Shown here piece by piece: positions 1 through 12,438 of a DNA stretch of 64,000 nucleotides. Location: NCBI GenBank assembly GCA_011939005.1, contig GCA_011939005.1_4858.1, one strand, 5' to 3'. Both the position numbers and the translations under genes were made by a program. How positions within the stretch are numbered: the stretch's first letter is position 1; every line of letters begins with the position of its first letter. Under the pieces are notes generated by a model. The model saw only the letters and a program-made list of their open reading frames with translations. It did no database searches and was not told the origin of the DNA. Origin of the DNA: a phage.

Positions 1-891
1 GGTTTATCATACCTCACGCAGAATCTGTAAATTTTAATCAGCCAGGTACTGGCGTTTCACAACGGGAGTACCCACCCCTCTCGTCTGTTCCGAGCCGTCA
101 AGATCCGATCACCCCACTTTGGAGTTATCCCCCAAGTCTGCGGTTCTACACGCAGACCCCTTTTCGACGCAACGCCGAATTCGAATCAGTTTTGGCCCGA
201 CGCCAGAGCGGAATCAGCGATAACTATCGGAGGTAAGTTCAACGACGTCTCTCCGCTGCCCAGTCCTCTGGCGCTGCCACGGTCAACTCGGATTTTGTCA
301 TGGGTGCGCAGTCGACTTTCTCGACACTCTCGCAAACCGAACTACGCCCGACGTAGCACCGTCGGCAGGTCGGTTATTTACCGAGTACCTGAATGGGTGG
401 TGATTGTCGGAATCCCCGCCGACGCTCACCGGTTCTGTTCCACGGCGAAAGTTTTCCAGAACATAATAAATCACGCAGTGTTAGATTGCGCTTTGTCGAA
501 GACACCACGGTAGGTATTTTCGAAAAAGCGTCCTGGGTATCAGTCCCAGGACTTGGAGCCCTAGTGTGCAGGGTTTAAAAAGTGATTGGACCATTGGCGC
601 GGTCAATCGCTATTCGCATATAACAACAAACTCACGTAATCAAAAAATTACCGGCTCGAGGCGTAGGCGTCCAGGAGCCGGTGAGTCACACAGCAGTGAG
701 TCCCTCTGCGGGGATTTTCGTGGAGCTTGTCGTTGGAATAAAAATCCGTCCCCGGACGGGTTGGTGTTGTGGGTCGACTTGTCAGAGTCTACCTACCAGG
801 GAGGCGACCACCAAAGCTATGGGTTTTTGGACATCGAGTGGTGGTCTGAACACACGATAGGGAAACCACGTAAAAAATACACAGGGTACCC

Positions 892-1135
892 GATCTCGGT
901 CTTCCGTCCGATCACGATCTCTTAATAAGGATCACGCGCGCGCCCGCACGCGTTTTAAGATCTTAATATATTAATATATTTATTTATATAAATAATTATA
1001 ATAATTAAATATAATACCTAAAGGTATTATTATATTTAATATTATTATATATTTTAAAAGATCCTGGAGGATACGGGTGCGCGCACGCGCACGCGTATAA
1101 GGAAAGGGTCTTCGACCCGATCCACAGGATCGATC
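892..1135. promoter_or_regulatory. Candidate cis-acting element (replication-origin-like): A+T core 953-1059 with central palindrome 1011-1030, flanked by alternating Pu/Py GC tracts 933-952 and 1077-1096, 9 GATC sites
   Basis: Direct reading: GATC at 892, 910, 916, 930, 959, 1060, 1119, 1128, 1132; core has only 6 G/C in 107 nt; function is inference. Confidence 0.3.
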
Positions 1136-1686
1136 TAAAAAACAATCTAAGTGATTGTTTTAAAAAGAAATTTTGAGAATTAGATTAAATTATCCCCTAA
1201 GGGGGATTTTAGAGTGAGTTAAACAACCCAAAGAACTCGTAAGTAACCGACAGTGTGTGTCGGTTACAGAACGATCCAGTTTTCACCCAGACATGGCACG
1301 AAGTGCTACCCAACGTGTGATCGTCGCGGCGACCGGCGACCGTCGTCCCGGAACCGAAACGGGAATGGCTCTCTCGCGCTCTCAGCGGCCCGCTGGCGCG
1401 ATTTTCCGGTAGGGGGAACCCAAGTGTACTGGGTCAGTTATAAATCTCGTTCTAGCGCTTTCTAGAGCGTTTTTAATAACCGGTTAAAAAACATACAATC
1501 CTGAATCCCCATTCCCCGTATTTCCTCGCCCCGACAAAAATAAATTCACCGACTCGATGCAAGACCCCCTCTAAAACGCACGTAATTGACCCTAGAAAAC
1601 GATAAACTATCAAAAATGAGCTACCCTACATCCAGACCACTTAATCGTTTTCTGGTGTTTCCTAGACCTCTTTAATCGGATGGTTA

Positions 1687-1734
1687 AAAAAACAAAAAAA
1701 ATAAGATTGGCGTACTCCCCGAAGAGAGTACGCC
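1687..1734 (-). terminator. Intrinsic terminator (stem 1709-1717/1726-1734, UUCG-type loop on minus RNA, U-tract from plus A-run 1686-1704)
   Basis: 9-bp GC-rich stem directly 3' of minus-strand gene ending at 1742, followed on minus strand by long U-run. Confidence 0.7.
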
Positions 1735-1741
1735 TAGTGAC

Positions 1742-2251
1742 TTAACACTTGATGGTGTAGCCATCAAGGCCAAGGTGTACTGGTTTTATCCATAACCCTG
1801 GCTCCCCGAAAATATTCAGGTCGTAAGTTTGGTAATGCATGATCTTTGCAGGAACATGCACACCCATGCGTTGCAGAAATTCCCAGACGGCGACGTAGCG
1901 TTCACGAGTGATGAACATTAGCCCGGAGTCGAACCCGGAACCGATGTCTAGGAAATTACCAAGAGAACTGTCAAAACTTGACACCCCATCTTGAGTAAGT
2001 GCGACCAACCCTTTAGTTAAATCTCTGTGGTTGTCAATGAAGTTACAGAGATCTACGATGGTTATTTGACCGTAAATACGACGGAGGACGGCAGCAACAG
2101 CCAAAATCTCGCTGGTATTTCCGTAGTCACCTAAAGGGTTATGGTCCATCATCGCAGTAATTATGCTTGTGTCGCAGAGGTCGATTAACCGCTGGTCGTG
2201 TACCACCAGGTTAAGACCTTGCTCCACCTGCACGGTTGGCGCAGTAAACAT
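1742..2251 (-). CDS. Hypothetical protein (about 169 aa; ORF extends to 2296 but internal ATG at 2251 follows SD ggag and avoids overlap)
   Basis: Six-frame ORF; SD ggagcctcct immediately before ATG at 2251 and just after stop of upstream gene. Confidence 0.5.
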   Translation of the reverse strand: MFTAPTVQVEQGLNLVVHDQRLIDLCDTSIITAMMDHNPLGDYGNTSEILAVAAVLRRIYGQITIVDLCNFIDNHRDLTKGLVALTQDGVSSFDSSLGNFLDIGSGFDSGLMFITRERYVAVWEFLQRMGVHVPAKIMHYQTYDLNIFGEPGLWIKPVHLGLDGYTIKC

Positions 2252-5153: not shown

Positions 5154-7261
5154 TTCATCCTCTGTCGTTGGATTAGCTCTTTCAAGCTTTCCATCGATGC
5201 GACGTTACGAACGTCAGTGTTGAGTTGAGAGACGAGCGCTTGAATACGATTCTTGTACATGAGCTGTTGTACCGGGTCGGCTACAACTTGACTCTGTCTA
5301 ATCATCGTTTCAATTTGCCCCATCAGTTGTTGTTGCTTTTCTTCTTCCTCGACTGCAGCCTCTTCATCGAATTCACCTGCCATGCCCCCAAGCATATTGC
5401 GGTTGCGCATCATCAGTCGGCTGTTACTTATACCGTAGTGGCCTAAGTTGTTGCCGAACAGAAGTAACCACATTGCCAGAAGCCAGGATATTACCAGGTC
5501 ATCGTGACCGGATGCACGGTGGTCTATGCGCCCGTTTCGTTCGACGAGACCGAGGATTTGGTCGATCAATTCGCCTGACCGCAGTAAGTCCGCAGAAAGA
5601 CGCAACGCCGTGGTAAATACTTCACCATACAACTTACGGCGTTTATCCTGGTCGGTTGAGAAACCGATGTATTTACGGAATTTGTCCCAGAAGCGCTCTG
5701 GACTGCCCACAGGGCCACGATGGAACTCTTTGTAAAGTTCATCGTTCCTTGAGTAATCCTGGGTCACTTTCACGTACAAACGACGATGCAAATCGCGAAC
5801 CTTAGATTGCAGCTGCAGTATAATGGCATCTGCTACCGAGGAGCCGGTAGACCGTCGTTCCAGAATGAGTACCGTGTTCGGATATTCGATCATGAAGTCT
5901 GCTAAGTGAATCGCAAACCCGATGACGTTTGTTTCGTTCACGGTGAGCTTGCCGGCATATTCGGCAGTGACAGAGTTGACGATTGACATGGCAATGGCGT
6001 CACGTCCAACGGCTTCGGAAGTATCCAAACCGATGATGTGGCGGTCTTGCATTTTAACCAGCATCTGCTCTTCAGTGTAATACCAATCCGTTACGTAGTT
6101 GGATGCAGAGATAATTTTCTGCGCCGCACGAACACGCGAGTCGTTCATACGTCTTGCATCATCGCCTGAGAACGGTTTGTTGTAACCACCGGTTGTCCAT
6201 TCACCACCGAAGTCACGGCGGATTTGGTCTAGTGTACCTGGGGCGTTCGCAATCATATCTGCGAGTTCTTCGTCCGTGGTACCGAGTTGGCGGTGGTTGT
6301 ATTTCACGTAGAACATGATACGTGGAATCTTCGCAGTAGAGCCTTTGCGAATCATGTCAATCAGTTGTGCACGAGTCGGAATGTCGATATACCGTTCATC
6401 CCACGAAATCCCCGACGTCATCAGGCTGTACATGTACTCGCCTTCTTCTGTCGCCAAATCCCCAGGCGTTGTTGCGAAGACGTTGCCGTATGGAACACCT
6501 TCGGCTTCGTTAATACGACGCGCCGCGGTACCCGATGCTAGTGCAGCAGGGAGGATATGGTGGATGTTGTTGGTAAACGGTCCTTCATCCGAGAACAGGC
6601 GTCCGGCTGTGAGTCCACGGCCTACCCCGTTCGCAGCTTCCTTATCGTTTTGACCGATGCCGGTGATAAGTTTGTTACCCTGTGCTAGACAAGCAAATGT
6701 CTCACGGTTATCAGGATCGTCCGGATGATGAGGCCAGAGATAATCCGGTAACGCGTTACGCAGTTGTTTCATTTTGTTGATAGTTTCTTCACGCAGGGCA
6801 GGACCCTTCGTGATAAGAATCGTACGTGAGTTCTCCAGGAAGCGCATCAGCCACAATAGCAATGCGGACATCCCGACGGTCTTACCATGCTGACGGAGAA
6901 ACTCGATAGCGGCGTCGATGTTGTTGAAGAAAATCCAATACATCGAAAAGTTACCGCGGTCTAGACGAAACGGCATCCCGTTCTTTACACCATCCGCAGG
7001 GACCCGGACACACTCACGGAAGAAGTACCATGGGTTTTCCGCACACTCCGTAACAATCATCGCTTTTTGTTCGAGTGTTAAATCCGGGCTAAACGGATCA
7101 ACACCACGGAGTTCGGGATTGTGTAATGCCAGGTGGACGTACCAATGCTGGACACCTAATCCTTGTAGTGTTGTGGCGAATTGAAGGAAGTGCACGTTTG
7201 GTGTGACATCGTCAACAATCGCCCCCGGATAGTGTCGCCAATCGTTTTTTCGCAGTATCAT
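5150..7261 (-). CDS. terL: Terminase large subunit (T4 gp17-like)
   Basis: 703 aa; LRQHGKTVGMSALL resembles T4 gp17 Walker A SRQLGKTTVVAIF; C-terminal GHDDLVISWLLAMWLL resembles gp17 nuclease motif GYHDDLVMSLVIFGWL (both from memory); SD ggag. Confidence 0.9.
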   Translation of the reverse strand: MILRKNDWRHYPGAIVDDVTPNVHFLQFATTLQGLGVQHWYVHLALHNPELRGVDPFSPDLTLEQKAMIVTECAENPWYFFRECVRVPADGVKNGMPFRLDRGNFSMYWIFFNNIDAAIEFLRQHGKTVGMSALLLWLMRFLENSRTILITKGPALREETINKMKQLRNALPDYLWPHHPDDPDNRETFACLAQGNKLITGIGQNDKEAANGVGRGLTAGRLFSDEGPFTNNIHHILPAALASGTAARRINEAEGVPYGNVFATTPGDLATEEGEYMYSLMTSGISWDERYIDIPTRAQLIDMIRKGSTAKIPRIMFYVKYNHRQLGTTDEELADMIANAPGTLDQIRRDFGGEWTTGGYNKPFSGDDARRMNDSRVRAAQKIISASNYVTDWYYTEEQMLVKMQDRHIIGLDTSEAVGRDAIAMSIVNSVTAEYAGKLTVNETNVIGFAIHLADFMIEYPNTVLILERRSTGSSVADAIILQLQSKVRDLHRRLYVKVTQDYSRNDELYKEFHRGPVGSPERFWDKFRKYIGFSTDQDKRRKLYGEVFTTALRLSADLLRSGELIDQILGLVERNGRIDHRASGHDDLVISWLLAMWLLLFGNNLGHYGISNSRLMMRNRNMLGGMAGEFDEEAAVEEEEKQQQLMGQIETMIRQSQVVADPVQQLMYKNRIQALVSQLNTDVRNVASMESLKELIQRQRMK

Positions 7262-11465: not shown

Positions 11466-11475
11466 AGTGGGCCTC

Positions 11476-12381
11476 TTACTTGATGTTCAGTGGTTTGGTG
11501 TTTTGATTCATCAGAAGGTTGTATGTGAATTCAAACTTATCGCGTTTCTTAGCGGTGTCTGACTTCTTCACAATCCCACCTAACCGACTGCGGTTAAACA
11601 TGTTATTATCCAGACAAGCCTTAATCATAACGAAGAGACTAGGCGGATATTCGATGGCGCTGGTAGCGAGTTGTTTTTCATAACTCACCCCGAAGAAGCT
11701 GGTATTCAACATCTGCTGCAGAGACAGAATGCTCAGGTCACGCACCCGCGGAGTGATATCTGCAGCCTGCACCATTTCGACGAATTCTGCGATATTACGC
11801 GGGAAAAGATATTCTGTGTGGCCTGTCACTGATTCAAACAGTTCCGCAGGTAAGCCTAATTGTTGCTCCAGCATCTGCTGCAAACGTAAAGCTTTCACAT
11901 CATCTTCGACGTGATTATAGAACTGTCCCACAGAGAACAATGCAGCCAACGCTTTGATTTGCCCACTTTGATATGGAGCAAGTGCAAACGTGTGGGTAAT
12001 CGCATCCGACACCCATTTGCTGAAAATCTCATGGTGGTAGGGCATCTGTGCCATCAGTGCAGCAAGCTTACCATTACTCCGTTTCCACACCAATTCCCAG
12101 CGAGCCTGGTCGAGACGCAATGCGTGTTCGACTGGGTTTCGTATTTTTAGCTCGTTGGTCTTATCCAGCGTGGTAAACGTGGCTGCGTATACATAAACGT
12201 CGTCGCCGATAACAATCGGCAAAGGAAACGGTTTTACATCAGCGGTCTCAACAACGTAATGAACTTCATCGGACTGTGAGACAGTTTGGTTAAGTTTACG
12301 GGCTAATTCCAGGTCTGCCTTGGTGCGAGTAAGGTCAAGTGCATTAAAGGGATTACCGCTGTAAGCGTTTTCGAGTGCCAT
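11476..12381 (-). CDS. Hypothetical protein (about 301 aa; start taken at ATG 12381 rather than 12543)
   Basis: ATG at 12381 preceded by SD taagga; the longer ORF to 12543 would overlap the divergent gene by 105 nt and has a non-protein-like N-terminus. Confidence 0.5.
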   Translation of the reverse strand: MALENAYSGNPFNALDLTRTKADLELARKLNQTVSQSDEVHYVVETADVKPFPLPIVIGDDVYVYAATFTTLDKTNELKIRNPVEHALRLDQARWELVWKRSNGKLAALMAQMPYHHEIFSKWVSDAITHTFALAPYQSGQIKALAALFSVGQFYNHVEDDVKALRLQQMLEQQLGLPAELFESVTGHTEYLFPRNIAEFVEMVQAADITPRVRDLSILSLQQMLNTSFFGVSYEKQLATSAIEYPPSLFVMIKACLDNNMFNRSRLGGIVKKSDTAKKRDKFEFTYNLLMNQNTKPLNIK

Positions 12382-12438
12382 GAGTATGATCCTTAGTATG
12401 ACCATCAGGTCTTTAAGACGAATATATGGAGACGTTCC

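Follow-up and report, generated by a model that had tools for sequence, protein, structure and literature searches.

Evidence for a conserved minus-strand structured RNA in a gene-free gap of SPN3US-like jumbo phages

What does a phage keep in a part of its genome that holds no gene? The window analysed here, a stretch of phage DNA of 64,000 nucleotides (GenBank assembly GCA_011939005.1, contig GCA_011939005.1_4858.1), raises this question at its very beginning. The first-pass annotation described positions 1-920 as a GC-rich, hairpin-dense and non-coding stretch that could encode structured RNA or a set of protein-binding sites. Our analysis places the window in an SPN3US-like jumbo phage and indicates that these positions probably form the left arm of a locus for a conserved non-coding RNA. 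From sequence comparison, the RNA appears to be previously undescribed, with compensating mutations that keep its fold in every related giant phage examined; a literature search returned no description of the 1-920 region.

The gene-free gap and its neighbourhood

Identity and synteny place the window phage among the SPN3US-like jumbo phages (Seoulvirus, Chimalliviridae), with Salmonella as its host. The region proved to be gene-free as proposed, but its true extent is larger. The gap covers positions 1-1741 (1.74 kb), so that 1-920 is only its left part, and the left-hand neighbour gene begins 18 nt before window position 1. The position of the gap is kept in at least six related lineages, with examples in Seoulvirus, Erskinevirus, Machinavirus, Wellingtonvirus, two metagenomic lineages and a group of 222-kb replicons. 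The flanking genes and a tRNA cluster are encoded on the minus strand, and the RNA locus lies upstream of an HslV-like gene and of this cluster. A tRNA-Trp gene is found approximately 630 nt downstream of the RNA on the same strand; the genomes of relatives likewise carry tRNA-Trp, tRNA-Asn and as many as eight annotated tRNAs on the downstream side, in the same orientation. All lineages keep an AT-rich palindrome (955-1065) with alternating CG/CA tracts on its flanks, and many database records begin within it. The terminase gene is located about 3.5 kb from the arm.

The non-coding nature of the stretch was upheld. Each ORF of at least 34 aa in 1-925 is frameshifted or stopped in relatives, including one relative that is 96% identical. 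Since no homolog carries an intact ORF, the objection that the region is a decayed pseudogene does not apply; a coding or pseudogene origin was excluded because no ORF is conserved. Remnants of tRNA or tmRNA were also excluded, as ARAGORN found neither in the window.

All six hairpins listed by the first-pass annotation are present in the sequence, at 136-157 (7 bp), 311-325 (5 bp), 348-365 (6 bp), 531-551 (7 bp, or 8 bp if taken as 530-552), 650-682 (8 bp around a 17-nt loop) and 746-759 (5-6 bp, with an A-run before it on the plus strand). Their density, however, is not above chance: there are five stems of at least 6 bp compared with 2.8 ± 1.7 in dinucleotide shuffles (P = 0.14), and 32% of the same phage's coding windows have at least the observed count of perfect stems of this size. 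Perfect stems of at least 7 bp numbered three versus 0.8 ± 0.9 (P about 0.05). The description as GC-rich holds weakly for the stretch, with 0.508 for positions 1-1000 compared with approximately 0.49 for the whole window, whereas the RNA core alone reaches 0.55. Folding energies gave a similarly divided picture, with MFE z-scores that are strongly negative only at 451-750 and unremarkable in the rest of 1-920; the strongest z-scores lie at 976-1275, outside this region. Hairpin counts and single-sequence MFE z-scores were dropped as evidence, being non-significant for most of 1-920.

A structured core and its 5′ module

Homolog alignment and covariation bore out the proposal of a structured RNA and gave a conserved minus-strand RNA at 27-296, reaching to about 522-552. 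The core (27-296, minus strand), which is the span of our covariance model R1, consists of ten helices (H1-H10) with 63 pairs and includes a GNRA-capped 3′ hairpin and the invariant 3′ core AUCUUGGCGGCUCGGAAAGACGAGAGGGG. R1 matched the window with 265.5 bits, as a single copy in 64 kb. In alignment A4, 89.4% of cells were paired under the curated structure compared with 36-47% when the partners were slid, and double compensatory changes were seen in 27 pairs compared with 4-9. None of 500 shuffles matched the curated structure, RNAalifold scored 19 of 52 pairs as compensatory, and the covariation figures held up when 22 distinct sequences were realigned to the model. Folded as a single sequence, the core shows no unusual stability (z = -1.4), and its nucleotide identity equals that of the neighbouring genes. 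The core helices contain 124 G:U cells and only 6 A:C cells. This tolerance of G:U but not A:C fixes the minus strand and is the mark of RNA rather than of DNA in duplex or cruciform form; for the core, it also points away from the set of protein-binding sites that had been suggested. The alignments indicate that selection acts at the level of a minus-strand RNA, and on neither DNA nor protein. That the locus encodes a genuine minus-strand structured RNA is, in our judgement, very likely.

H1 (5′ strand 279-282, 3′ strand 95-98) closes a junction carrying the domains H2-H5, H6, H7 and H8, and the invariant H9 segment and the 3′ hairpin H10 follow. H2 pairs 276-278 with 194-196 and H3 pairs 267-274 with 200-207; within this stretch (194-282) lies an internal domain with H4 and H5, the loop of H5 being GAACUUACC at 232-240. 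H2 changes from C:G to U:A in seven sequences, H3 is 96% paired with 3-6 covarying pairs, and H5 has four covarying pairs. H6 (164-180; UUCGGCG-UUG-CGUCGAA) is paired in 97% of cells and shows G:U to G:C and G:C to U:G changes in the Huxley group. H7 (136-159) is the hairpin at 136-157 with one additional G:U pair; five of its eight pairs show double changes, and the stem of the Huxley group is wholly different in sequence, representing complete covariation between lineages. The invariant segment AUCUUG-ACGG-CUCGGAACAGACGAG (80-104), which contains the 3′ strand of H1 and hairpin H9 (80-83 with 91-94), is unchanged in all 22 distinct sequences and served as the pattern for our database scans. 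H10 (40-77) has an apical GNRA loop and an internal loop, with an invariant GCUG after it. The apical loop is GUGA in the window and GAGA, GCGA or GGGA in relatives (alignment A4), 97% of H10 cells are paired, and double compensatory changes occur in 9 of its 14 pairs.

A universally conserved 5′ module, also on the minus strand, is formed by the element T1, its U-run, hairpin Hx, a series of motifs and helix P0. T1 (523-552) is a GC-rich hairpin (530-552) followed by GCUUUUU and was called by our terminator scan. Each of the 17 lineages has T1; the stems are unrelated in sequence, but the tail, CUUUUUCGA, is invariant. A change in SPAsTU yields G:U on the minus strand only. Hx (497-522) starts directly after the U-run. 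It is paired in 89.8% of cells compared with 27-58% when slid, has double changes in four of eight pairs, and folds better in the minus sense in 16 of 17 lineages (summed energies -152 versus -101 kcal/mol). The conserved region at 386-496 holds motifs that occur in the same order across 15-17 lineages: GACAAAGC (489-496), UCUAACAC (478-485), UUUAUUAUGUUC, which contains TATG (462-465), a hairpin at 400-432, and UUCAGGU (386-392), which is present in all lineages. P0 pairs ACUCGG (379-384) with CCGAGU (286-291), and compensatory changes were read from the sequences of SNUABM29 (ACUCAGU/ACUGAGU) and Asesino (AUCUGGC/GCCGGGU). It encloses a hypervariable insert (292-378) that contains the hairpins at 311-325 and 348-365; even SPFM4, a close relative, has another sequence in its place. 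Over approximately 500 nt, at least 13 helices are supported or conserved, and we think it probable that the structured RNA extends this far; the structured transcript would then be about 500 nt here, about 400 nt in Machinavirus and roughly 400-525 nt overall.

The ends and the expression of the RNA are predictions from sequence. T1 could be terminator-like, or it could be an internal hairpin with a U-rich linker. In all lineages it is directly followed by an invariant CGA(G/A) and the covarying Hx, a pattern that ordinary terminators of this genome lack, which suggests that T1 may be an internal element or processing site of a long RNA. In form, T1 resembles a strong intrinsic terminator placed ahead of the large RNA. 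Either the large RNA starts just after T1 without a recognisable promoter, or polymerase reads through T1. Seoulvirus, Erskinevirus, Machinavirus and the 222-kb group all keep the TATG at 462-465, but the Huxley and Wellington types lack it. Across the genome this tetranucleotide is depleted, and it stands upstream of 14 of 59 genes compared with 8.9% expected. The phiKZ-type late promoter is TATG, with transcription starting at the G, and is recognised by the non-virion RNA polymerase (PMC7598289). We predict that TATG 462-465 may serve as a transcription start site. Sigma-70 promoters were also considered. Five candidates were found in 1-2400, which is no more than in shuffles; only one, a weak one, lies in 1-920 (60 to 31), and the others are in the AT-rich palindrome or a flanking gene. 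A W-TTTTTTAC promoter motif was rejected as well, with two matches versus 1.6 expected in the window and no enrichment, and the U-runs are better read as terminator tails.

Searches with R1 found one copy per genome in every relative, and divergent lineages scored 104-148 bits over the full length of the model. Both blastn (phages, plasmids and E. coli genomes) and pattern scans (IMG/VR, JGI metagenomes and GTDB genomes) returned only SPN3US-like replicons and no wider family. In phages Kwan and Wellington, an HNH homing-endonuclease cassette of 634 nt is inserted inside the RNA gene. The cassette has homed into this gene, which marks it as a highly conserved target, and the viability of both phages implies that an uninterrupted RNA is not essential for plaque formation. 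The Wellingtonvirus version also has a shorter segment in place of the H6 and H7 hairpins. These variants are natural material for dissecting the RNA.

The remainder of the arm

Beyond T1, positions 553-938 hold two conserved units and two further hairpin-plus-U-run elements, with the minus strand as the candidate strand. Unit B (553-640), a candidate small RNA whose strand is taken from terminator direction only, contains a hairpin (559-573) and the near-invariant GAGUUUGUUGUUAUAUGCGAAUAGCGAUUGACCGCGCC. It is invariant across five Seoulvirus sequences of 67-96% overall identity, is partly present in phiEaH2, and has MFE z-scores of -4.2 to -4.9. T3 (641-682) is the 8-bp hairpin at 650-682 with its 17-nt loop, followed by AAUUUUUUG; a U:A to C:G change keeps the stem in SPAsTU and SNUABM29. 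Our terminator scan did not call T3 because its loop limit is 8 nt. T2 (737-759) is the hairpin at 746-759 followed by AUUUUUAUU, and is kept in SPAsTU and weak in SNUABM29. This hairpin had been predicted to be a minus-strand terminator, and a U-run does follow on that strand and the terminator scan did call it. Unit A (760-938) contains a helix (806-813 with 839-846), AUUUUUUACGUGG (866-878) and the 20-mer CTCTTAATAAGGATCACGCG (919-938). The 20-mer lies at the edge of the AT-rich palindrome and is largely conserved in every lineage read, but invariant only among the five Seoulvirus sequences; the Huxley group, UViG11741 and the 222-kb replicon carry it, in minus sense CGCGUGAUCCUUAUUA-GAG, with one or a few bases substituted.

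Terminator-like sites are numerous in 1-2400 (11 versus 2.5 ± 1.8 expected) and mostly on the minus strand. On this strand a U-run follows each of the hairpins at 530-552, 650-682 and 746-759, the first two of which are kept by compensatory changes. T1, T2 and T3 all have the form of intrinsic terminators, with a GC-rich stem and then 5-6 U on the minus strand, and the genes of the window end in similar signals. The strand comparison of 290-925 and of the right arm covers five sequences only, and in these the alifold energies for 553-920 are alike on both strands. We propose that transcription would run leftward from the AT-rich palindrome region, or from internal starts such as TATG 462-465, and that the elements at 746-759, 650-682 and 530-552 may terminate transcripts or act as processing sites. 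In that case, they would split the arm into two or three short RNAs and the large one.

Possible roles of the RNA

We tentatively favour a stable, trans-acting role for the large RNA over a purely cis-acting one. Our best guess is a processed and stable RNA, which would accumulate in its folded form either as a stand-alone transcript or after cleavage from the 5′ end of the HslV-like/tRNA operon transcript. Its invariant loops and GNRA tetraloop may bind a protein or RNA partner through tertiary structure, and by analogy with what is suspected for GOLLD and ROOL, it is perhaps tied to the adjacent phage tRNA genes.

The main rival, which we regard as rather unlikely, is that the RNA works in cis as a leader, be it a riboswitch-like sensor, a leader that binds protein or an element for processive antitermination. 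It would then control how the downstream operon of the X gene, a small gene, the HslV-like peptidase and the tRNAs is transcribed or translated. The RNA always lies directly upstream of a coding gene in the same orientation, and its size and complexity are like those of large leaders. However, this first gene comes from three families across lineages (an HslV-like peptidase, a 105-246-aa family or a 57-75-aa protein), and such differences between genera argue against a gene-specific switch. In SPAsTU, SNUABM29, SNUABM4/9 and Huxley, the spacer between RNA and start codon is only 26-30 nt and holds only the Shine-Dalgarno sequence, so that the RNA must there belong to the leader of that mRNA, which fits a cis role equally well. 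Where no gene abuts, a U6 run after the RNA suggests that it has an end of its own. The operon includes hairpin-rich tRNA genes, and crossing these would call for a modified polymerase. Neither a terminator nor an RBS-sequestering platform is evident between the core/H10 and the start codon, and no Rfam riboswitch or leader was matched, even at E <= 10. Finally, CCGAG (287-291) has two possible partners, ACUCGG in P0 and the invariant GCUCGG in the 3′ core. As the MFE fold of the single sequence picks the latter, a conformational switch is conceivable, but this pairing is without covariation support because its partner is invariant.

Much less probable is that the conserved blocks are DNA signals that act with the palindrome at 955-1065, for example as a replication origin, a packaging site or arrays of promoters or protein-binding sites. 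The arm does adjoin the palindrome, which has the strongest fold z-scores and is conserved in all lineages, the terminase gene is near, and 553-920 has no demonstrable strand asymmetry. Long invariant single-stranded blocks (596-640 and 919-938) could also be protein-binding sites. Against this, the helices of 27-552, Hx included, follow the G:U over A:C asymmetry described for the core, and stems that change their sequence wholly yet stay paired are unlike sequence-specific DNA sites. The many records that start in the palindrome could equally be explained by assembly breaks in AT-rich sequence. That the region has no function and consists of chance hairpins in decaying or spacer DNA is barely credible: the numbers of hairpins and the single-sequence energies do lie within or close to what chance would give, but the region is as conserved as the neighbouring genes and retained in every lineage, with extensive covariation and no trace of a common ORF, and an alignment artefact is unlikely given the independent metagenomic contigs.

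With regard to known RNAs, no Rfam family was matched in 1-920. An E-value-mode cmscan of window positions 1-2000 against Rfam 15 (E <= 10) returned nothing there and chance-level matches elsewhere, and seven homologous loci (E <= 1) gave tRNAs only; the families covered include GOLLD, ROOL, RNase P, tmRNA, 6S, group I/II introns, riboswitches and T-box. GOLLD and ROOL, large 'ornate' RNAs of phages and prophages, are themselves phage-encoded and found near tRNA islands; pseudoknots and self-assembly into homo-oligomeric cages are further traits of this type (PMC12286853). Similar to these RNAs, the RNA described here is phage-encoded, non-coding, several hundred nucleotides long and near a tRNA island, with many covarying helices, an invariant 3′ core and variable 5′ and central domains. 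In contrast, its core of about 270 nt and total of about 400-525 nt are smaller than the approximately 580 and more than 800 nt of those RNAs, it has no Rfam match, and its host range is that of jumbo phages of Enterobacterales. With large cis leaders (riboswitches, T-box and HK022 put) it shares a position 5′ of an operon on the same strand, a high degree of structure, invariant loops and one segment with a possible alternative pairing; it differs in having no family match, an inconstant downstream gene and no recognisable expression platform. The put RNAs are two-hairpin elements of about 70 nt, far simpler than this RNA. phiKZ, which belongs to the same family (Chimalliviridae), expresses non-coding RNAs whose role is unknown according to a review (PMC13282480), but blastn and pattern searches show no sequence relation to it and find only SPN3US-like genomes.

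Several other resemblances were rejected. The HNH insertion and R/S-like words on the plus strand (GGUAAGUUCAACGAC and AAGAUAUGGACC) prompted consideration of a group I intron; there is no Rfam intron match, the functional strand is the minus strand, and the flanking genes are complete and unrelated. Words of RNase P RNA (ACAGAACCGG, UCAGGUA and CCGUGGCA), group II domain V (GAGCCG...CGGUUC), the B12 box, the T-box sequence GGUACCGCG and the start of SAM-I were likewise set aside, because these short words are not collinear with the real families, lie partly on the wrong strand and match no Rfam model. Three tertiary or long-range contacts were also discarded. The partner of the T1 tail in the core, UCGAAAAG, is unconserved; for a closing helix of the UUUGUUUAGUAUG segment with the 3′ tail, cognate partners pair no better than non-cognate ones; and an 11-nt tetraloop receptor (CCUAAC...UAUGG) has no helix in between.

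The RNA could conceivably define a new class, that of large structured RNAs specific to SPN3US-like nucleus-forming jumbo phages, and be a tRNA-island-associated analogue of GOLLD and ROOL that works as a machine of RNA alone or as an RNP, although we consider this unlikely. In that case, such an RNA might handle phage tRNAs or translation during infection, and be conserved enough to serve as a homing-endonuclease target. The locus itself adds a case from Gram-negative jumbo phages to the few large phage RNAs known beside tRNA islands. Nucleus-forming jumbo phages are a current focus of research, and their non-coding RNAs are almost uncharted. Here, a strongly covarying structured RNA of about 0.3-0.5 kb occurs once per genome in every relative of SPN3US, itself a genetically tractable model phage with amber-mutant collections. 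Several GenBank records annotate short 'hypothetical proteins' across the RNA, and our analysis corrects these annotations.

Covariation and strand of the core RNA

The best-supported account of this region is that it encodes a structured phage RNA of a new family, its core about 270 nt long. In alignments of the relatives, long invariant blocks alternate with freely changing segments, and in Asesino and phiEaH2 the C:A mismatches of the plus strand read as G:U pairs on the minus strand, which was the first pointer to a minus-strand RNA. RNAalifold predicted 52 pairs from 15 minus-sense sequences, 19 of them with double compensatory changes. The curated structure comprises ten helices with 63 pairs in a 16-sequence alignment covering window positions 294 to 27. 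In these helices 89.4% of cells were paired, versus 36-47% in controls in which the 3′ partners were slid by 1-3 columns, and 27 pairs were changed on both sides, compared with 4-9 in the slid controls. None of 500 shuffles reached the observed pairing or covariation score. The well-supported helices contain 124 G:U cells against 6 A:C cells; this fixes the strand as minus and indicates selection on RNA, not on DNA hairpins. The first-pass annotation had proposed one or more structured RNAs within 1-920, and covariation bears this out for the minus strand.

In minus sense, H1 (279-282 with 95-98) closes the junction, followed by H2 (276-278 with 194-196) and H3 (267-274 with 200-207). The internal domain H4/H5 (226-246) carries the invariant loop GAACUUACC at 232-240. 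H6 lies at 164-180 and H8 at 113-125; H7 (136-159), the first hairpin noticed in the first pass, is replaced by a wholly different stem in the Huxley group. The hairpin H9 (80-94) is invariant, and H10 (40-77) bears a GNRA apical loop (GUGA, GAGA, GCGA or GGGA) in all sequences. The core string AUCUUGGCGGCUCGGAA-AGACGAGAGGGG is essentially invariant.

R1, a covariance model built from the curated 16-sequence alignment, found a single copy in the 64-kb window (27-296, minus strand, 265 bits) and one copy in each relative, without exception. Full-length matches of 104-113 bits were obtained in the Wellingtonvirus-type and UViG_3300011741 lineages, where sequence is alignable in the 3′ third only. 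The pairing and covariation statistics persist when 22 distinct sequences are realigned to the model. The core is as similar to its counterparts in relatives as the neighboring protein genes are to theirs, with 71-78% nucleotide identity versus 74-85% for genes within Seoulvirus relatives, and 62-64% versus 62% for the gene to Machinavirus. A search of Rfam 15, a check prompted by the first pass, gave no family match in the window (scanned over 1-2000) or in seven homologous loci, and no tRNA was found in the window either.

The gene-free gap and its hairpins

By blastn, 63 phage records match window 1-1750. SPN3US-type phages of Salmonella, Escherichia and Proteus share 91-99.5% identity with it, and Erwinia jumbo phages are more distant matches. 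Seoulvirus has been placed in Chimalliviridae, the family of jumbo phages that form a nucleus. MET_P1, a complete relative, has a minus-strand gene whose start lies 18 nt outside the left edge of the window (position 1), with tRNA-Trp and tRNA-Asn farther left on the same strand, and the right-hand neighbor ends at 1742. The stretch first described as gene-free over 1-920 is therefore indeed gene-free, but spans 1-1741, with a leftward-reading gene on either side. A gap of 1.3-2.1 kb also persists at the equivalent position in Seoulvirus (SPAsTU, pEa_SNUABM_29), Erskinevirus (Asesino, phiEaH2), Machinavirus (Huxley, ChrisDB, SNUABM_4, SNUABM_9), Wellingtonvirus (Kwan, SNUABM_11) and metagenomic contigs.

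Every ORF in 1-925 is broken by frameshifts or stops in relatives, even in one that is 96% identical, so the region is truly non-coding, as the first pass had held. Several GenBank records (among L004, L005, L008, L009 and L002) annotate short hypothetical proteins across the RNA, including Huxley gp278, Asesino gp288 and gp289, two phiEaH2 CDSs of 120-129 nt and pEa_SNUABM_29 gene 00166. None is kept as an ORF between lineages, and the short CDSs annotated across 1-925 are probably spurious. Elsewhere in the window, 11466-12438 (~970 nt) is nearly empty in a crude tiling of ORFs of at least 80 aa; it looks coding, and genes overlooked by the tiling are a likelier explanation than a second non-coding gap.

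All six hairpins reported in 1-920 (136-157, 311-325, 348-365, 531-551, 650-682 and 746-759) were found in place, and they exceed chance only in part. A density above chance was not borne out by shuffles and coding windows: there are 5 perfect stems of at least 6 bp versus 2.8 ± 1.7 in dinucleotide shuffles, and one third of coding windows of equal length from the same phage reach as many. For stems of at least 7 bp, 3 were observed versus 0.8 ± 0.9 in the shuffles. Within 1-920, sliding 150-nt folds single out 451-750 (z -3.4 to -4.9) and none of the remainder; the strongest z-scores lie beyond, at 976-1275. GC content is 0.508, compared with ~0.49 for the whole window.

Upstream elements and probable transcript length

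A series of elements 5′ of the core is common to 15 to 17 lineages, in the same order. On the minus strand it begins with T1 (530-552), a GC-rich hairpin whose stem sequences are unrelated between lineages, followed by an invariant (G/C)CUUUUUCGA(G/A), at whose CGA the second hairpin, Hx (497-522), begins. After Hx come GACAAAGC, CCUAACAC, UUUGUUUAGUAUGUUC (four lineages), UUCAGGU and the helix P0 (379-384 with 286-291), which encloses a hypervariable insert. Hx is 89.8% paired versus 27-58% when slid, four of its eight pairs have changed on both sides, and minus sense gives the better fold in 16 of 17 lineages. In P0, SNUABM29 carries compensatory changes, as do Asesino and phiEaH2. Two of the first-pass hairpins, 311-325 and 348-365, fall inside the insert and are not kept even in SPFM4. 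The shared series and the covariation of Hx and P0 point to a structured transcript of about 500 nt that covers, as a minimum, 522 to 27; its total length is probably close to this value, and the structured span in Machinavirus is ~400 nt. T1 would either terminate a unit that precedes this RNA or be a hairpin within it.

Farther upstream on the minus strand, hairpins at 650-682 (followed by AAUUUUUUG) and 746-759 (followed by AUUUUUAUU) each precede a U-run, and in the former a U:A pair has become C:G with the stem intact. Machinavirus likewise has three hairpin-plus-U-run modules in tandem. Between these hairpins, blocks such as 596-640 do not vary across Seoulvirus genomes that are 67-96% identical. 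In 553-920, where five sequences could be aligned, U-run orientation and one G:U-only substitution in T1 suggest that this part, too, may be read on the minus strand. A terminator scan of 1-2400 gave 11 sites against an expectation of 2.5 ± 1.8; most of the 11 are on the minus strand.

TATG-type motifs mark phiKZ late promoters (PMC7598289), and the TATG pattern of the window recalls them. The motif is rare across the window (0.00185 per position versus 0.0039 expected for a random 4-mer) and moderately enriched upstream of genes, within 60 nt of 14 of 59 versus ~9% expected. TATGGAG-N7-ATG occurs twice, e.g., ahead of 12439 and of the gene that ends at 7261. The TATG at 462-465 lacks a counterpart in two lineages and is only a candidate transcription start.

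Gene context, distribution and the palindrome

Two or three hairpin-plus-U-run units would precede the RNA, which would head an HslV-like/tRNA gene cluster. A stable, processed or stand-alone RNA is slightly likelier than a purely cis-acting leader. In four lineages only 26-30 nt, containing a Shine-Dalgarno sequence, separate the RNA from a start codon, so there it must belong to that gene's leader. An RNA with no gene directly next to it is followed by a U6 run; tRNA genes lie downstream on the RNA's strand. The gene directly downstream encodes an HslV-family peptidase in the window phage, MET_P1 and phiEaH2, and one or two unrelated small genes intervene in other lineages, which makes a gene-specific riboswitch less likely.

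The RNA gene of Kwan and Wellington is interrupted, immediately upstream of the invariant core, by a 634-nt HNH endonuclease cassette (L007 1172-1805 in Erwinia phage Kwan; also L023 and L015), with its ORF (L007 1205-1714) on the RNA strand. A metagenomic contig without the cassette, L024, is 100% identical on both flanks. A homing endonuclease thus seems to have invaded a highly conserved target, and an uninterrupted RNA is dispensable for viability. The cassette's 5′ leader gives a weak int-alpA-like match (31 bits, under the gathering score).

A literature search found no description of this region. By context its nearest analogues are GOLLD and ROOL, large phage RNAs of unknown function often found by tRNA islands, GOLLD having a conserved 3′ and a variable 5′ region (PMC12286853). 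The RNA fails their sequence and structure models, and the link is therefore resemblance, not membership. Beyond SPN3US-like replicons, no matches were found by pattern scans of IMG/VR, JGI metagenomes and GTDB genomes or by blastn against phages, plasmids and E. coli genomes. The matches include two circular ~222-kb records annotated as plasmids, from E. coli 98232 (L045, NZ_CP173450.1) and Enterobacter ludwigii (L046, NZ_CP134650.1), clinical or wild-bird isolates. Both have SPN3US-like gene order at the locus, a 148-bit R1 match and a 2-kb gene-free gap holding palindrome and RNA; they resemble jumbo-phage genomes that bacterial isolates carried or that were co-assembled with them.

For 27-552, where the G:U substitutions favor RNA, a role at the DNA level is improbable, but one may apply to the AT-rich palindrome to its right (955-1065), a candidate divergent promoter hub or replication origin. 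It has a small hairpin at its center and alternating CG/CA tracts at 933-953 and 1075-1097, and fold z-scores in the region are strongest around it (-6 to -7.5). Beside it, the 20-mer CTCTTAATAAGGATCACGCG (919-938) recurs, slightly changed, in every lineage read. Several independent GenBank records start inside the palindrome (~968, ~1030), which points to either breaks in assembly or a genuine end. Further conserved blocks lie in the gap's right arm (1100-1741): a hairpin at 1243-1267 in which SNUABM29 has a compensatory swap of A:T for T:A, a terminator-like plus-strand hairpin at 1448-1469 with TTTTT after it, and the hairpin ACCCAAGTGTACTGGGT (1418-1433), kept in all genera and resembling 559-573 and 1770-1783. 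These blocks may represent a second RNA, possibly on the plus strand.
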